Source: an uncultured Pseudomonadota bacterium
GTDB lineage: Bacteria; Pseudomonadota; Alphaproteobacteria; Rs-D84
Direction: 5' to 3'
NCBI GenBank assembly: GCA_902781465.1
Contig: CACZJK010000001.1
Span: 60,243 to 124,242 of the forward strand
DNA: 64,000 bases
The notes under the pieces were generated by a model, which saw nothing but the letters and a program-made list of their open reading frames with translations, was not told the origin of the DNA and did not search any database. Position numbers and translations under genes: made by a program. How positions within the stretch are numbered: position 1 is the stretch's first letter; every line of letters starts with the position of its first letter. Shown one piece after another: positions 3,389-55,462 of this stretch.

Positions 3389-3424
3389 TTATTTAACCCC
3401 GTTTTTTATATTTTCTTCAAACAC

Positions 3425-3592
3425 AATTAAACCGCCATAAAGCAAGCGGTTGGAGGCTCAAAACAATTCTAGTGGAAATTGCGTGCTTATTCGATATATT
3501 CGCAACCCTCCAACCATAGTTGGAGATGTTTATCGTCATCTAGACGCCACTAAAATGGGTTTTGAGTCCCAATCAGCAAAACTCTTGCTGAT
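3425..3592 (-). ncRNA. R1 structured leader RNA, copy 5 (upstream of family D gene)
   Basis: Reverse complement contains a -10 TATAAT box, hairpin AUCAGCAA-GAGU-UUGCUGAU and the long-range helix CUCAAAAC/GUUUUGAG. Hairpin 2 is CGUC-uaga-GACG and hairpin 3 is CUCCAAC-UAU-GGUUGGAGGG. It ends with CCUCCAACCGC, an AACCGC/GCGGUU terminator with a U-tract, and then the SD and ATG at 3388. Confidence 0.7.
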
Positions 3593-3711
3593 ACCGTTTA
3601 TTATACCATATTTCCCAAATAAAAAAAGTAAAAAAATATGCGTATTTTTCCAAAGAAGTTTTTATTGAAATCGTGTAATTATTTGCTATGCTTTCCGTCA
3701 AAGGAAGCATT

Positions 3712-7193: not shown

Positions 7194-7227
7194 GTTGTAT
7201 AAAATAACAGTTTCAGATAAAATAATT

Positions 7228-7410
7228 TTGTCAGCAAGAGTTTTGCTGATGAGGCTTGAGAACCTGTGATAAAGTGGCGTCTAGAAAAAGCGGACGTAAA
7301 ATGCTCCAACCTATGGTTGGAGGGCTGCGAATATATGGAATAAGCAGCGCAATTTCCACTTTGAATTGTTCTCAACCTCCAACCGCCTTTCTTTTAAGTG
7401 CGGTTTTAAT
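7228..7410 (+). ncRNA. R1 structured leader RNA, copy 1 (upstream of family C gene)
   Basis: A -10 box GATAAAAT sits at 7216-7223. Hairpin UCAGCAA-GAGU-UUGCUGA is followed by long-range helix UUGAGAAC/GUUCUCAA. Hairpin 2 is CGUC..GACG, then CUCCAACC-UAU-GGUUGGAGGG, hairpin CUGCG..CGCAG, CCUCCAACCGCC and a terminator. Confidence 0.7.
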
Positions 7411-8211
7411 TTTTTTGCCGTTCTGGCTGTTCTTGGAACGACGCAAGGTTCTCCCCTTGTTGGGGGAGTGCGGCGCAGCCGGAGGGGGGTTAAGACAAAA
7501 GGAACAAAATGTGTTGTGTGTTACGGTGCAACATTTAATCAATATTGGTATATCGAAGATAACGCACCAATACAAACATCTTGCACCACCGGTGGCGATA
7601 TAATATTACCAACCCCACCAATCAAATATGGATATGATTTTATCGGTTGGGAGAAATTACCATATGTTCCAATTGAGTATTTGGAAAGCACCGGAACACA
7701 GTATATTGATACGGGGCTAACTGTGAATGATGGTGATATAAGTGCAACCGCTGTTTTTATGCCGACCAGTTTTGTTGTAAACGATACTTATGCATGTATT
7801 TTTGGTATTAATGGAAACTTTCAGGCTGCCTACACTGGTACTGGTACAGCACACATAGGCAACACTTCGTCCTTACAACAATTTTTTTATCTTTATAAAA
7901 AAGCAACTGTTAAGGGTGTTTTATCGTCAAGTATGCCTCAAATATATTATGTTGATAATGTTTCTACTGGTTTGTCGAGAACTTTTAATACAGATAAAAG
8001 GTTAATGTTATTAGATGCGGAACCTCATAGGTTTGCCGCACGTGGTAGATTGTATAGTTTCATTGCTTCTAGAAATAATAAAGTAATTATGGATCTTATC
8101 CCCGTTCTTGATTCCAACGGCACACCATGTATGTATGACGTGGTGGAAAAGAAATTTTATTACAACGCCGGTACCGGTCAATTCATCGCTGGTCCAGTTA
8201 TTGGGGAATAG
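7366..8211 (+). CDS. family C exported-protein paralog with GW (Listeria-Bacteroides-type) repeat; 5' end disrupted (pseudogene or internal GTG start at about 7471)
   Basis: From CVVCYGATFNQYWY onward it is collinear with 24067-24855 (LPTPPIKYGYDFIGWE motif). The paralog's signal peptide is replaced by read-through of the R1 leader plus a GC-rich palindromic repeat, with no ATG in frame near the homologous start. Confidence 0.4.
   Translation: MFSTSNRLSFKCGFNFFAVLAVLGTTQGSPLVGGVRRSRRGVKTKGTKCVVCYGATFNQYWYIEDNAPIQTSCTTGGDIILPTPPIKYGYDFIGWEKLPYVPIEYLESTGTQYIDTGLTVNDGDISATAVFMPTSFVVNDTYACIFGINGNFQAAYTGTGTAHIGNTSSLQQFFYLYKKATVKGVLSSSMPQIYYVDNVSTGLSRTFNTDKRLMLLDAEPHRFAARGRLYSFIASRNNKVIMDLIPVLDSNGTPCMYDVVEKKFYYNAGTGQFIAGPVIGE
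7447..7491 (+). repeat. GC-rich palindromic repeat (GGTTCTCCCC..GGGGGAGTGCGGCGCAGCCGGAGGGGGG); second copy at 23267-23310
   Basis: Near-identical 45-bp GC-rich block in a roughly 35% GC genome, also present at 23267-23310. It contains a CTCCCC-N-GGGGGAG dyad. Confidence 0.7.
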
Positions 8212-24855: not shown

Positions 24856-24874
24856 AAAATTCCCCCTTTGCCAA

Positions 24875-25062
24875 AAAAAGACCGTCCAAAGGGCGGTCAG
24901 GGAGGTGGTAAAGATTAACAAAACGAAATCTATCTCCCCGACCATAATATCAGGGACACATGCGATGCAAAAAGCACCGAAAAAACATCAGATACGATGC
25001 TTTCGCATCGGTTTTGTTAAAGGCTTACCACAGCCCTGAACCCAATTCCCATTGGATTCAAA
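24875..25062 (-). ncRNA. R2 structured leader RNA, copy b (upstream of family C gene)
   Basis: -10 GATAGAAT in reverse complement at 25068-25076. Hairpins are CCAAU-GGGA-AUUGG and CGAUGC-GAAA-GCAUCG. An alternative terminator GCAUCG..CGGUGC plus U5 is possible. Second terminator is GACCG..CGGUC plus U7, about 20 nt before the ATG. Homologous to 43556-43762. Confidence 0.55.
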
Positions 25063-25133
25063 TACTATTCTATCATAACAACACAAAAAAACAACACCTG
25101 TTTTCACAGGTGCTGCATTGAATTATAAAAAAT

Positions 25134-29087: not shown

Positions 29088-29963
29088 ATGTCATCAAAAT
29101 TCTTAGGTAAATCATTGGCTCAATTAAACGAAGAAATGGGGACAACGCCGGACATTTCCGTATTGACTGGATTGGAACGTGTTGTTGTAAAACCGATTCC
29201 TTTGGTTCAAATAAGTCCTAACCCGGACCAGCCACGAAAAACATTTAACGAAACTGAATTAAATGATTTGGCTGAATCTATACGGGAAAAGGGCGTTTTA
29301 GTTCCTATTATATTAAGGGCCGTCCAAAACAAACCTTATCTTTATGAAATTGTTGCCGGCGAACGCAGATATCGCGCCGCACAAAGGGCAGGGCTCAGCG
29401 AAATTCCGGCCTTGGTAAAAACTCTGGACGATAAAAATGCGATGGAAATTGCGTTGATTGAAAATGTACAGCGCGAAAACCTGAATCCTATCGAAGAAGC
29501 CGAAGGTTATCAAAATTTAATGTCAAAATGCGGCTATTCTTTGGAAGATGTATCACGATTGATTGGTAAATCGGTCAGTTATATACGCAACCTTATGCGC
29601 ATCAATAATTTGCCGGAATCTGTTAAAAATTTGATAAAAGAAGGCAAGATTTCTGCATCACACGCGCGCACAATCGCGGTATCTGAAAACCCAGAACAAT
29701 TGGCGCATGATATTATAAATAATAATTTATCAGTTGCCGAAACACAAAAACACGTAAAAAATTCTACACGCGCAAAAGGCAGCCGCAACCTGATAAAAAA
29801 CACTCTGGATTCGGAATACGTCGCAAAAATAGAATCTAAATTATCAAAACATTTGGACGCAACCGTAAAATTACACGAAAAGCGGGGCGGGGCGGGTCAA
29901 TTTACAATATCATTTGATAACCGCGTCCAAATGGAAGATTTAATAAACAAATTGTTAAAATAA
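29088..29963 (+). CDS. parB: chromosome partitioning protein ParB
   Basis: ParB box GERRYRAAQRAGL with an HTH region. Confidence 0.9.
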   Translation: MSSKFLGKSLAQLNEEMGTTPDISVLTGLERVVVKPIPLVQISPNPDQPRKTFNETELNDLAESIREKGVLVPIILRAVQNKPYLYEIVAGERRYRAAQRAGLSEIPALVKTLDDKNAMEIALIENVQRENLNPIEEAEGYQNLMSKCGYSLEDVSRLIGKSVSYIRNLMRINNLPESVKNLIKEGKISASHARTIAVSENPEQLAHDIINNNLSVAETQKHVKNSTRAKGSRNLIKNTLDSEYVAKIESKLSKHLDATVKLHEKRGGAGQFTISFDNRVQMEDLINKLLK

Positions 29964-30019
29964 ACCGGTCAACACCGGTTTTTTTATTGCAATAAATAAT
30001 TATTTTCTGATAAAATAAT

Positions 30020-30210
30020 TTTGTCGGCAAGTATTTTGTCGGTGGGGTGTAGCTACCTCTGAAATAAATCGGCGTCTGGGAAAAAGCGGACGTAAAATGC
30101 TCCAACTGATAAAAATTTGGTTGGAGGGTTGCAAAATATACTGAATATGCACACAATTTCCGATTTAAATTGTAGCTAACCTCCAACCGCCCGATTTTCT
30201 GGCGGTTTTG
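30020..30210 (+). ncRNA. R1 structured leader RNA, copy 2 (upstream of family A gene)
   Basis: Promoter TTGCAA-N17-ATAAAAT. Long-range helix GGGGU-UAGCUA/UAGCUA-ACCUC. Hairpin 2 is CGUC..GACG, then CUCCAAC..GGUUGGAGGG, CCUCCAACCGCC and terminator CCGCCCGAUUUUCUGGCGG plus U4. Confidence 0.7.
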
Positions 30211-30236
30211 TTTGTAAAAAAACAAAAGAGGATACA

Positions 30237-30713
30237 ATGACAAAAATTATAATGATAATCGCCGGATTAATAACAACAATTCCAACATATGCAACAACAA
30301 TGTGCGCCGCAAATGATACCGTTGCCATCGTATTAGATCCAAGTATTGAAAAAATTGATATGGGTGCAGACGCTACAAGCCAAACTTGGTGGGCACAATT
30401 ACCCTTCGGACGCGTCAGCGGAACCGCAGCACTTATAAATAAAAACTGCACACAAGGTCAAGCCACATCAGAATTAACCGACATTGATAATAATGGTGAT
30501 ACAAAACGTATTGTGGGCGGTGAAAAATACGGCAAAGTTTGTTGGTGTAAATTGATACATCCTGCCATGTCTAAATGGGTTTGCAATGTTTATTCAGGCT
30601 ATTATAACGATAATTTTGGTTTTGATAGAGGTTCTTTAGCACATTGTGTTGGAATGTGTGCGACACTATTCGGAAGTATAAACTCCGGTCTTTTTGGTTC
30701 GATTGAAAACTAA
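30237..30713 (+). CDS. family A small secreted Cys-rich protein (TYATTMCA family)
   Basis: Signal peptide. Conserved with the 36822 and 55109 ORFs (PTYATTMCA.NDTV..VLDPSI, WWAQ.PFGRVSGTAA, VGGEKYG.VCWCK). Confidence 0.6.
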   Translation: MTKIIMIIAGLITTIPTYATTMCAANDTVAIVLDPSIEKIDMGADATSQTWWAQLPFGRVSGTAALINKNCTQGQATSELTDIDNNGDTKRIVGGEKYGKVCWCKLIHPAMSKWVCNVYSGYYNDNFGFDRGSLAHCVGMCATLFGSINSGLFGSIEN

Positions 30714-36583: not shown

Positions 36584-36623
36584 TTTTCTCTTTTTTTAAT
36601 AAATAATGTTTGCTAGAATATAT

Positions 36624-36806
36624 CTGTCAGCAAGAGTTTTGCTGATGAGGCTTAGAAACCTGCTTCGATATGCGTCCACAAGAAGACGTTAATTCTCCAA
36701 TCAATAATTTGGTTGGAGGGCTGTGATATACATAAATAAACGGCGCAATCTCATATCGAATTGTTTCTAACCTCCAACCGCCCGATTTTCTGGCGGTATT
36801 TTTTCG
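36624..36806 (+). ncRNA. R1 structured leader RNA, copy 3 (upstream of family A gene)
   Basis: -10 TAGAAT. Hairpin UCAGCAA-GAGU-UUGCUGA is followed by long-range helix UUAGAAAC/GUUUCUAA. Hairpin 2 is CGUC-cacaagaa-GACG, then CUCCAA..GGUUGGAGGG, CCUCCAACCGCC and terminator CCGCCCGAUUUUCUGGCGG plus U. Confidence 0.7.
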
Positions 36807-36821
36807 AAATGGAGGAAACAA

Positions 36822-37292
36822 ATGAAACGATTTTTTATAATATCAGCATTAACAATAATAATGCCAACATACGCAACAACAATGTGCGCCCAAAATGACA
36901 CAGTCGCAGTTATATTAGATCCATCAATAATTGCAACAAGTTATGGTTCTGATGCAACAACTGGAACATGGTGGGCGCAATTCCCGTTTGGTCGAGTTAG
37001 TGGTACTGCCGCTATGCTAAATAAATCATGTACCCAAGGTCAAGCAATATCACAATTAACCGATACAAATAACGGTGAAACTAAATTGGTTGTTGGGGGT
37101 GAAAAATACGGTCGTGTTTGTTGGTGTAAAATAACACACCCGACAACATCTAAATGGGTGTGTAATATAACCGCAATTAACTATGGTGGCAGTGATTTCA
37201 CCGGATGTGTAAATTTGTGCGGACGGTTTTTGACAAACACCTATCACAATAGTGCATTAGAATCAGGTTTATTTGGTTCAATTTCAAATTAA
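36822..37292 (+). CDS. family A small secreted Cys-rich protein
   Basis: Paralog of 30237-30713. SD GGAGG is 8 nt upstream. Confidence 0.6.
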   Translation: MKRFFIISALTIIMPTYATTMCAQNDTVAVILDPSIIATSYGSDATTGTWWAQFPFGRVSGTAAMLNKSCTQGQAISQLTDTNNGETKLVVGGEKYGRVCWCKITHPTTSKWVCNITAINYGGSDFTGCVNLCGRFLTNTYHNSALESGLFGSISN

Positions 37293-43555: not shown

Positions 43556-43762
43556 TATGAATCCAATGGGAATTGGGTTTGGGGCTGTGATAAGCCCAAT
43601 CAGGTCGGTGCGAAAGCATCGTTATATTGGTGTTTCGGTGTTTTTTTTGCATCGTCAACATCCCTGACTAACAAGGTCGGGGAGCCGTCATACCGTAAGG
43701 TGACGGAATCATAACCTGATTGATTTATCAACTCCCCGACCGCCTTTTCATTGGCGGTTTTT
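43556..43762 (+). ncRNA. R2 structured leader RNA, copy a (promoter TTGCAC-N16-TAGAAT at 43525-43552)
   Basis: Homologous to the reverse complement of 24875-25062. Hairpins are CCAAU-GGGA-AUUGG, GGGC..GCCC and CGGUGC-GAAA-GCAUCG. An alternative stem GCAUCG..CGGUGU plus U8 is possible. A long helix GGUCGGGGAG/CUCCCCGACC encloses CCGUCA..UGACGG. Terminator is ACCGCC..GGCGGU plus U5. Confidence 0.55.
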
Positions 43763-43780
43763 ATAAAATGGAGTTTTCCT

Positions 43781-44068
43781 ATGCCACAAACTAAACAAAT
43801 TAACAAAATCGACCAAACTGAAAGATTAATAGAAGCGGTTGAAAACCTGTCTTTTTCAATCGACAATTTGAAAGACAATAGTTCGCGTGATTATTCACCA
43901 TATTTAACAAATATTTTTATATCTTTGAAAATATTGGATAAAATTCAACACGAATTACACATATTAAATAAAACATTTATTATGTCTGCTCTGCTTTTAA
44001 GTGCAACAAAAAATCCAGAAAAAACATTAAATGAATATCACAAAATTATTGACCAATATTTAAATTAA
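43781..44068 (+). CDS. small hypothetical protein
   Basis: ATG at 43781 is preceded by GGAG. 95 aa with no signal peptide, followed by a terminator. Confidence 0.4.
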   Translation: MPQTKQINKIDQTERLIEAVENLSFSIDNLKDNSSRDYSPYLTNIFISLKILDKIQHELHILNKTFIMSALLLSATKNPEKTLNEYHKIIDQYLN

Positions 44069-54693: not shown

Positions 54694-54769
54694 GCCGGAA
54701 TAGCTCAGTTGGTAGAGCATCTCATTCGTAATGAGGGGGTCGCAGGTTCGAATCCTGTTTCCGGCACCA
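54694..54769 (+). tRNA. tRNA-Thr (anticodon CGT)
   Basis: Acceptor GCCGGAA/TTCCGGC, anticodon loop TTCGTAA, T-loop GGTTCGAATCC and an encoded CCA. Confidence 0.85.
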
Positions 54770-54913
54770 CGAAAAATTGTTAACCCGCACAATAAAAGTG
54801 CGGGTTTAAAATTTTTCAGTGTCGCCATGTAATGAACATAGTGAATACAAGCAGACTTTTTTATTTTAATAACTTTTCCCTTTTTTTCATAAACAATCTC
54901 TGATAAAATATTT

Positions 54914-55092
54914 TTGTCAGAAAGAATTTTTCTGATGAGGCGTAAGAACCTGTTAATGTATTGTGTCCGCGGGGACAAAAAACACCTCCAATCGTCTTTT
55001 GGTTGGAGGGTTGCGATATATATGAATAAGCACGCTATTTTCAATACATTATAGTTCTTAACCTCCAACCGCCTTTTATATCGGCGGTTTTT
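54914..55092 (+). ncRNA. R1 structured leader RNA, copy 4 (upstream of family A gene)
   Basis: -10 GATAAAAT. Hairpin UCAGAAA-GAAU-UUUCUGA is compensatory relative to the other copies. Long-range helix is GUAAGAAC/GUUCUUAA. Hairpin 2 is GUCC-gcgg-GGAC (also compensatory), then CCUCCAA..GGUUGGAGGG, CCUCCAACCGCC and terminator CCGCCUUUUAUAUCGGCGG plus U5. Confidence 0.7.
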
Positions 55093-55108
55093 AAAAACGG
55101 AGGAAAAG

Positions 55109-55462
55109 ATGAAAAAAATATTTTTAATAATTTCTTTATTGGCAACCATACCAACATACGCAACAACAATGTGCGCCCAAAATGATACAGTTGTAGTGGT
55201 ATTAGATCCGACAATATCCGGAGACCGCGGTTATAACTCAAGCAATGGTAATTGGAGTTTTATAACAAAATCATATGCAATATATGGCGAAACTAAAATA
55301 GAAAACAGCAAATGTTTTTACAGAATAACCCACCCATTTATAATTCCATGGAGATTCCATACAAATACAACTAGCGTAGGCGGGTGTGCCGACAGTGTAG
55401 CTGTTGCATTTGGCAATGGGATAGAATTAAGGAGGTCGATTTTTTCATCAATCACTGATTAA
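55109..55462 (+). CDS. family A small secreted Cys-rich protein (diverged, 117 aa)
   Basis: MKKIFLIISLLATIPTYATTMCAQNDTVVVVLDP is shared with the 30237 and 36822 ORFs. SD GGAGG present. Confidence 0.55.
   Translation: MKKIFLIISLLATIPTYATTMCAQNDTVVVVLDPTISGDRGYNSSNGNWSFITKSYAIYGETKIENSKCFYRITHPFIIPWRFHTNTTSVGGCADSVAVAFGNGIELRRSIFSSITD

Follow-up and report, generated by a model that had tools for sequence, protein, structure and literature searches.

A doubly pseudoknotted leader RNA family with a candidate terminator/antiterminator switch in the gut alphaproteobacterial order Rs-D84

The pyr/PyrR attenuators of Bacillus subtilis and the trp-type attenuators (pairings 1:2, 2:3 and 3:4) contain three successive complementary segments and the 3′ arm of a terminator. 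Their middle strand picks either an upstream or a downstream partner, and the downstream one is shared with a terminator that precedes the Shine-Dalgarno (SD) sequence. In the pbuE (ydhL) adenine riboswitch, a switch of the ON type, the 3′ strand of the helix that closes a three-way junction overlaps the 5′ arm of the terminator and thereby blocks termination. We analyzed a 64,000-nucleotide stretch of DNA (the window) from an uncultured bacterium of the alphaproteobacterial lineage Rs-D84 (assembly GCA_902781465.1, contig CACZJK010000001.1, positions 60,243 to 124,242) and found both arrangements in a repeated leader of about 190 bases that we call R1. We consider it probable that R1 is a cis-acting, promoter-proximal transcription attenuator, built as a riboswitch-type terminator/antiterminator/anti-antiterminator switch.

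Three strands make up the platform: an upstream partner (A), a switching segment (B) and a downstream partner (C). Their helices, the nucleotides shared between rival helices, the terminators and the adjacency to genes are shown by comparison of homologues. In the focal copy, which carries positions 30100-30210 on the forward strand, A is the anti-antiterminator strand CUCCAACU (CTCCAAC(T) in the DNA; 30100-30107) and pairs over a loop at 30108-30118 with B, GGUUGGAGGG (DNA GGTTGGAGGG, core GGUUGGAGG; 30119-30128). The other partner of B is C, the antiterminator 3′ strand CCUCCAACC (DNA CCTCCAACC; 30180-30188), the last four nucleotides of which, AACC, open the 5′ arm of an intrinsic terminator at 30185-30213. 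This terminator pairs AACCGCC (30185-30191) with GGCGGUU (30201-30207), continues into UUUUGUUUG (DNA TTTTGTTTG), and sits about 25 nucleotides (nt) ahead of an SD sequence (AAGAGGA, 30226-30232) and an ATG (30237). A reading of the sequence placed each of these elements where an initial annotation of the window had put it. The promoter consists of a −35 TTGCAA, an 18-nt spacer and a TG-extended −10 TAAAAT that ends at 30016 (29987-30016, forward strand). Judged from its position, the RNA start should lie about 7 nt past the −10 box, at the foot of the first hairpin, P1. The gene upstream of the focal leader has its own terminator at 29962-29981.

The motif GGTTGGAGG occurs ten times in the window, corresponding to five copies each read on both strands (shuffled sequences are expected to contain 0.18, and none of 100 shuffles contained at least 10). 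The five close R1 copies have B at 7315, 30119, 36711 and 55001 on the forward strand and at 3507-3515 on the reverse strand. It had been proposed that in all copies an invariant B can pair with an upstream CUCCAAC(C). The pairing was indeed present throughout, but A itself is CUCCAAC(C/U) in three of the five copies and CUCCAAU(C) in the other two, where it pairs via a G·U wobble; A is therefore not strictly identical across copies.

Homologues were collected with a scan of one genome per species for the pattern B...C, which returned at least 116 loci, and a profile of the five window copies identified 88 homologous leaders in the window and among the loci listed. Because this first pattern contained B and C themselves, the resulting set was unable to test the B:C or A:B pairings. 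Two remedies were used: a covariance model built from 35 leaders, which added, within the loci, roughly a dozen copies beyond the reach of the pattern, and a metagenome scan with a pattern located only in hairpins P4 and P5, which gave 81 loci with 91 model matches, 79 of them unique. In copies that were not chosen via B or C, the triple A/B/C had co-varied to CCCUGACU / GGUCGGGGAG / CUCCCCGACC, to CUUCUGCC / GGCAGGAGG / CCUCCUGCC, to ACCCCGAU / GGUUGGGGUG / CACCCCGACC and to UCCCGACC / GGUCGGGA / UCCCGACC, and co-variation of B and C alone was seen in GGGAUUGGAG / CUCCAAUCCC and GGGGUUGGACAG / CUGUCCACCCC. On the model alignment, B:C was 97.7% paired with 6 of its 9 pairs changed on both sides, and A:B was 93.7% paired with 4 of 8 changed on both sides. 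The corresponding values for the 79 leaders selected via P4 and P5 were 98.1% and 96.9% paired, with 14 (B:C) and 17 (A:B) doubly changed cells compared to 1.6 and 2.1 in shuffles; B was GGUUGGAGG in 59 and C was CCUCCAACC in 61 of these 79. The proposed alternative pairing of B with C is thus kept by compensatory changes. Of the two partners A is the weaker: most of its changes are C-to-U wobbles or loop-end mismatches, whereas nearly all B:C pairs are Watson-Crick. Since both A and C compensate where B changes, both mutually exclusive pairings are under selection.

The suggestion that C also feeds the 5′ arm of the terminator was borne out as well. The overlap between the 5′ arm and the 3′ end of C is constant and also seen in the variant B/C types, and 122 of 124 unique leaders have a terminator-like hairpin with a U-tract after C (hairpin of −6 kcal/mol or better, then at least four U in 8 nt). 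The terminator stem itself covaries, with pair 190:210 being AU in 18 and GC in 16 leaders of a 35-leader alignment. A:B, B:C and the terminator, which compete for one common segment, are therefore each maintained by compensatory change, and as B is unable to pair with A and C simultaneously and some nucleotides of C belong to the terminator as well, this compensation shows selection for mutually exclusive structures. Two other parts of the annotation did not hold. It had assigned the CCU of C to the 3′ strand of a long-range helix; such a GRGG:CCUC pairing does occur in minimum free energy (MFE) folds of the window copies, but across homologues it is uncompensated, with 114 of 130 cells paired, and breaks when either side changes. 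The covarying partner of the GRGG is instead a CCYC close by, and the two form hairpin P2 (125 of 126 cells paired; GC, AU, UA and CG are all seen). The likeness of CCUCC to an anti-SD sequence is not conserved, as some variant C strands (CGCCCCGACC and GCACCCGCCCC, for example) are without it. We also rejected the idea that CCUCC/GGAGG serves ribosome or anti-SD mimicry, because these motifs are missing from variant B and C strands.

The order of elements was derived from anchored listings and the 35-sequence alignment of diverse leaders and reads P1, P2, J2/3, P3 (optional), an A-rich linker, A, a variable loop, B, P4, P5, 6-7 nt, C and the terminator. In this alignment 91.6% of the cells are paired, compared to 80.2% in shuffles (none of 500 as high) and 37-48% with a slid partner, and both sides have changed at 30 of 45 pairs. 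In the focal copy, P1 is a 5′-terminal hairpin, UCGGCAA-GUAUU-UUGUCGG (30024-30042), in which 7 of 7 pairs have changed on both sides among the 35 homologues. P2 (30045-30058) is a short local hairpin of 3 bp (GGG/CCU) with a loop of 8 nt, UGUAGCUA; it is 97% paired, and its column pair 33:46 is GC in 24, AU in 6 and GU in 5 leaders. The optional P3, CGUC...GACG (30073-30092), is missing from short variants and has 4 of 4 covarying pairs (for example, CG 14, UA 14, UG 5). P4 (30128-30152), with 4 of 5 pairs covarying, carries an A/U-rich loop with the consensus GAAUAUAUUGAAUAAG, the most conserved unpaired stretch of R1, the center of which is replaced by an extra hairpin in some homologues. 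A palindrome in this loop, AAUAUAUU, was considered as a dimerization site and rejected, as its central four nucleotides vary or give way to that hairpin. P5, CAAUU...AAUUG, spans 30154-30172 (pair 153:171 is UA in 24 and AU in 10 leaders).

Two pseudoknots, which the initial annotation did not contain, connect these hairpins. Pseudoknot 1 (PK1) joins P2 loop nucleotides 30050-30055 with UAGCUA at 30173-30178, directly 5′ of C; 6 of 6 pairs have changed on both sides, 96.7% of cells are paired, and the covariance-model alignment also supports it. From this covariation the real long-range helix is PK1, in which the P2 loop pairs with the 6-7 nt that directly precede C. In PK2, UAAAUCGG of J2/3 (30065-30072) pairs with the P5 loop, CCGAUUUA (30160-30167). 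PK2 is too variable for column alignment, and complementarity was measured leader by leader: the longest stretch complementary to the P5 loop of the same leader has a median length of 8 nt and reaches at least 6 nt in 33 of 35 leaders, with 34 distinct sequences, compared to 3.9 nt on average when the partners are mismatched. As judged by covariation, P1-P5 together with PK1 and PK2 constitute a conserved, aptamer-like domain of the 5′ untranslated region.

We calculated the stability of the competing structures. In the focal copy the values are −12.7 kcal/mol for the A:B hairpin and −20.2 kcal/mol for the segment from B to C when the 9-bp B:C helix closes it; the terminator is worth −11.6 kcal/mol, or −4.4 without the AACC that it shares with C. 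Means for the 88 leaders are −12.3 ± 2.7 kcal/mol for A:B, −17.0 for the B:C duplex, −9.2 for the terminator and −2.8 for the terminator without AACC; loss of the shared nucleotides thus costs the terminators about 6-7 kcal/mol. Rival states were compared with explicit-structure energies in which P1-P5 were fixed and the pseudoknots omitted from both states. Before the 3′ arm of the terminator is made, the B:C state is ahead by 4.7 ± 3.1 kcal/mol (35 of 35 leaders), and at full length A:B plus terminator is ahead by 3.4 ± 3.7 kcal/mol (32 of 35). A co-transcriptional kinetic switch would be expected to show such a balance. In one homologue that lacks a terminator (locus L101; L numbers are our locus labels), C and the SD sequence form a hairpin, CCUCCAA...UUGGAGG (−9.9 kcal/mol), that lies immediately 5′ of the AUG; from its sequence this is a translational version of the same logic, in a single case.

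On the model that we favor, a constitutive promoter would give an RNA that begins at P1 and folds a P1-P5 sensor with a PK1/PK2 scaffold and the three-partner platform. Because B is made right after A, the A:B hairpin would form first and act as anti-antiterminator. C, emerging beside the PK1 anchor, could then oust A, and the resulting B:C helix would be the closing stem of a three-way junction whose other arms are P4 and P5. As B:C hides the AACC needed by the terminator, polymerase would read through into the gene (ON). Were A to retain B, C would stay free, AACCRYC would pair with GRYGGUU, and transcription would end at the U-tract, some 20-40 nt upstream of the SD sequence (OFF). In this model, whose folding order, effector-bound state and conditional read-through are inferred, a putative effector would bias the exchange of A and C on B. 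A small molecule or ion is a possible effector, and a dedicated protein or RNA factor a more tentative one; that there is no regulated exchange at all seems doubtful, and a physical or kinetic cue as the driver is quite unlikely.

Several observations weigh against such a switch. The genes under putative control are heterogeneous (orphan secreted proteins, XRE-type helix-turn-helix (HTH) proteins and an ABC exporter) and give no metabolic clue, unlike those of most riboswitches. R1 is confined to one order, Rs-D84, and unusually multi-copy, a pattern that is also typical of protein-bound or small RNA (sRNA) motifs. Units without an open reading frame (ORF) occur in head-to-tail arrays, each with its own promoter, which a pure cis-regulator would leave unexplained: four promoter, leader and terminator units lie within 1 kb at L143:153-1007 (forward strand), only the last of which is followed by an SD sequence and ATG, and paired tandem units are found at L213:4689-5055, L078:42-1116 (reverse) and L034:6854-7296 (reverse). 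P4, the bearer of the most conserved loop, is missing from one apparently intact copy (24869-25064), and the translational platform was seen only once. The covariation shuffles ignore kinship among the leaders, yet several different kinds of change were seen. Nested-only MFE folding prefers A:B in 84 of 88 transcripts cut after C. This preference arises because PK1 and PK2 are combinable only with A:B there and not with B:C; nested MFE of the shortened transcripts, which is unable to hold B:C plus pseudoknots, was replaced by the explicit-structure energies. With B:C closing the three-way junction with P4 and P5, PK1 becomes a contact between a loop and a junction strand, and on this geometric argument coexistence of B:C and PK1 would seem feasible.

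Could R1 units mainly be stand-alone sRNAs of about 180 nt that act in trans, as a regulator, protein sponge or structural RNA, with read-through being a fixed leak? All units carry a −10 box immediately 5′ of P1 as well as an intrinsic terminator, an obvious ORF with SD and ATG is lacking (by strict criteria) from 19 of 71 assessable leaders in the P4/P5-selected set, the terminator fold is the more stable one at full length, and the ORF-less tandem units suggest that terminated leaders may also act as sRNAs. Moreover, A, B and C are uniform in most copies of a genome while other helices drift, as a shared trans partner would yield, but slow drift of these strands is also expected from their multiple pairing constraints. 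Most units have an SD sequence and ATG on the same strand within 33-70 nt and no room for a promoter, such that expression could come only from read-through; the two exclusive partners of B and the overlap of C with the terminator are selected although superfluous for a plain sRNA; and L101 exchanges the terminator for an SD-sequestering hairpin. We regard a predominantly trans-acting R1 as unlikely. Roles in cis and in trans may also be combined, as in the terminated riboswitch RNAs SreA and SreB of Listeria, which act in trans. For the ORF-less arrays the data suggest an sRNA or decoy role, or multi-step attenuation. The alternative pairings might also reflect a folding pathway, in which A guards B until C is made, a single native fold results, and a terminator of constant efficiency sets a fixed low expression. 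The weak, wobble-rich A and the thermodynamic preference for B:C once C exists agree with this explanation, as do the missing effector and the functional heterogeneity of the downstream genes. Constant B:C, however, would preclude the terminator, yet it is conserved and covaries; constant A:B would free C from tracking B, yet C tracks B. The end states also lie about 3-5 kcal/mol apart with opposite sign before and after the terminator arm, as in kinetic switches, and a mere folding pathway seems rather improbable to us.

An origin at the level of DNA would make R1 a miniature inverted-repeat transposable element (MITE)-like element, a recombination site similar to attC or a promoter cassette that was recently duplicated, with the pairings as by-products of inverted repeats. 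B and C do form a 9-bp inverted repeat 50-60 bp apart, R1 is multi-copy, one copy has a sub-threshold match to sRNA-Xcc1 (see below), and GTTGGAG and CTCCAAC are sequences that we take to resemble integron core sites. The order GTT...AAC is the opposite of that in attC, however, and variant B/C types lack the GTT/AAC core. R1 is always found in the sense orientation, directly 5′ of a gene and with its own promoter. Copies within the same genome differ at P1, PK1, PK2, P3 and P4 by compensation that includes G·U-tolerant changes specific to RNA, and they are scattered among housekeeping genes, for example after the gene at 29088-29963 (which may be parB, a guess from its sequence and position). 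An attC site, a MITE and recent duplication were rejected on the basis of the wrong order of the core-like sites, the strict sense orientation with a promoter, and the RNA-type compensation, and a DNA-level element has only a very slim chance of being correct.

Attenuation by a leader peptide was rejected as well. No alignment column has an ATG in more than 40% of the leaders, the ORFs found in the leaders span 6-53 codons and have no SD sequence, and the AUGs after B differ between copies. The reading of R1 as a cis-acting switch also fits its position with respect to genes: there is no promoter room between terminator and SD sequence, which means that the downstream genes would be reached only by read-through.

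The known R1 homologues exceed 150 loci, from Candidatus Enterousia/Rs-D84 and unassigned gut metagenome contigs; among the loci listed, the majority are Candidatus Enterousia or unnamed gut alphaproteobacterial metagenome-assembled genomes (MAGs). Enterousia, a member of the uncultured order Rs-D84, has genomes smaller than about 1 Mb and inhabits animal guts (PMC12306168). An alpha-type transfer-messenger RNA in one R1 locus agrees with this placement. The density is 7 units in the 64-kb window and, as a rough figure, about one further unit per 40 kb elsewhere. Essentially all homologues have a −10-like hexamer 6-10 nt before P1, giving each unit a sigma-70-like promoter. Genuine R1 leaders were also present on contigs binned as Bacteroidota (L005, L021 and L070, labelled as Muribaculaceae MAG, and L029, labelled as a Bacteroides fragilis bin), which are probably mis-binned Rs-D84 contigs. 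A phage origin was rejected, since only 4 of the 22 IMG/VR contigs that match the pattern contain true R1 (L121:12018-12201, L128:766-949, L127:8440-8621 and L122:9514-9705). The gene downstream of R1 on these contigs encodes a secreted protein or an MsbA-like ABC exporter, with a DNA methyltransferase gene alongside. They could be prophage-borne or host DNA misclassified as viral, and this gene context indicates that they are probably host fragments.

Rfam 15 at gathering score recognized only the four tRNA genes in the whole window and no R1, and on 12 loci with about 25 R1 copies it gave no match overlapping R1, including none to PyrR, T-box or leader families. Permissive Rfam scans of two R1 copies returned noise and one match to sRNA-Xcc1 (RF02221), which was rejected because it is partial, reaches 32.2 bits at 7315-7392 only, compared to a gathering score of 53, and has no integron context. 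In a literature search of incomplete coverage we found no description of the R1 element or of gene regulation in Enterousia/Rs-D84. R1 is an undescribed, lineage-specific and highly multi-copy riboswitch-like leader family that is a member of no described family.

The focal gene (30237-30713, forward strand, SD from 30226) encodes a signal-peptide protein of 158 amino acids without a Pfam match, which we call family A; Pfam scans of its paralogues at 36822 and 55109 also gave no match. From the first set of leaders 78 downstream ORFs were kept, most of which have an SD sequence and an ATG 33-70 nt after C; 41 of the 78 encode an N-terminus that resembles a signal peptide, and another 27 encode small proteins that lack it. 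In the P4/P5-selected set, an ORF with SD and ATG was present in 52 of 71 assessable leaders (25 signal-peptide-like, 22 small). Two representatives of the small proteins matched XRE-type HTH families in Pfam (HTH_3, HTH_19, HTH_31), two window proteins contain the Flg_new repeat, and the other scanned proteins have no Pfam family. The downstream genes do not point to one ligand or pathway, and mostly lack Pfam families. Short leaders that lack P3 almost always stand ahead of a conserved XRE-type HTH gene of about 70-75 codons (M.V.LVD.KYFG..., MAKLLIDANYYG; L068:7444-7594 on the reverse strand, L088, L001, L071, L183 and L217). From its sequence and position, the encoded protein is a candidate regulator within the same regulon, or possibly one that controls it. 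About 40-200 nt past the last leader, L034 and L078 have in common a segment rich in G+C (…CUCAUCUCCAAUCAAAG…GGCCCGGCGCGGCUAUCCCCGGCUCUGGCCC…) in which no ORF is obvious.

The covariance model recovered the other four close copies in the window at 7226-7416 (forward, 154.5 bits), at 36622-36809 (forward, 134.5 bits; ahead of the family A gene 36822-37292), at 54912-55100 (forward, 151.6 bits; ahead of the family A gene 55109-55462) and at 3419-3596 (reverse, 151.8 bits; ahead of the gene 3388-3092 on the reverse strand and further exported-protein genes). The initial annotation had not included two divergent copies, designated R1b. One, at 43558-43770 (forward, 33.2 bits), has A CCCUGACU, B GGUCGGGGAG, C CUCCCCGACC and the terminator GACCGCC/GGCGGUU and precedes a 95-amino acid ORF that starts at 43782; its energies are −14.3 (A:B), −28.2 (B-to-C) and −12.6 (terminator) kcal/mol. 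The other, at 24869-25064 (reverse), was called from a reading of the sequence plus a weak score of 18.7 bits and has A CCCUGAU, B GGUCGGGGAG and C CUCCCUGACC; it precedes the gene 24855-24067 (reverse), which encodes a signal-peptide protein with a Flg_new repeat. The R1b copies have another P4 loop (AUAC...AAAGG) or no P4. With two leaders that use a different A/B/C "address" and an altered or missing P4, one genome contains at least two switch subtypes. The gene after the leader at 7226-7416 (ORF 7366-8211, forward) has neither the start codon nor the signal peptide found in its paralogue at 24855-24067, with which it shares CVVCYGATFNQYW, and the 90-nt gap at 7417-7520 contains a G+C-rich hairpin, CUCCCCUUGUUGGGGGAG; this gene may be a pseudogene or have a recombined 5′ end. 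A tRNA gene with a small terminator-like hairpin (54694-54766, forward) lies directly 5′ of the unit at 54912-55100.

If R1 is the switch proposed here, a structurally complex orphan class with two pseudoknots and more than 150 examples would join the repertoire of riboswitches and attenuators, and it would come from a gut lineage that is uncultured and genome-reduced. It is rarely possible to demonstrate compensatory evolution in a pair of mutually exclusive platform helices, and R1 would thus offer a clean natural model of strand-exchange switching. Since the controlled genes encode secreted proteins and small regulators, the trigger is probably central to the interaction with host or neighbors. 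A bolder and frankly speculative extension is a genome-wide RNA master switch, in which one sensor class behind constitutive promoters would gate much of the transcription of a genome of less than 1 Mb, namely the units for its secretome and a set of XRE-type regulators, in response to a ligand or factor that RNA is not yet known to sense. The A/B/C subfamilies (R1a with GGUUGGAGG, R1b with GGUCGGGGAG, GGCAGGAGG and others) would then be parallel channels, and the ORF-less tandem units trans decoys or sRNAs. One leader class over so many units would be an unusual RNA-centered regulatory economy for so tiny a genome.

Among described RNAs, sRNA-Xcc1 resembles R1 in its long G/C-rich helix around two hairpins; only the B-to-C part of R1 matches it, and the copy at 30119 does not. 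The regulons of the cyclic di-GMP-I and -II riboswitches likewise have many copies per genome ahead of surface or secreted proteins and regulators, but R1 matches neither RF01051 nor RF01786 in sequence or structure, and nothing in the present data points to second messengers in this organism. In the S-adenosylmethionine (SAM)-I or S-box riboswitch, a hairpin loop pairs with a junction strand beside the closing helix, as PK1 does in R1, and a second pairing between a loop and a strand corresponds to PK2; R1 differs in junction order and conserved nucleotides, has no Rfam SAM match, and follows the opposite platform logic. Compared to pbuE, R1 is unrelated in sequence and fold, has no Rfam purine match, contains the extra competitor strand A and precedes non-metabolic genes, but its energies suggest a kinetic decision, as in pbuE. 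Unlike trp-type leaders, R1 has no conserved leader peptide, and unlike in PyrR-controlled leaders, its A:B loop varies in length (3-12 nt) and sequence and is therefore not a PyrR-type protein-binding loop. In contrast to such three-hairpin attenuators, R1 has its platform built into a domain of about 150 nt that contains two pseudoknots.

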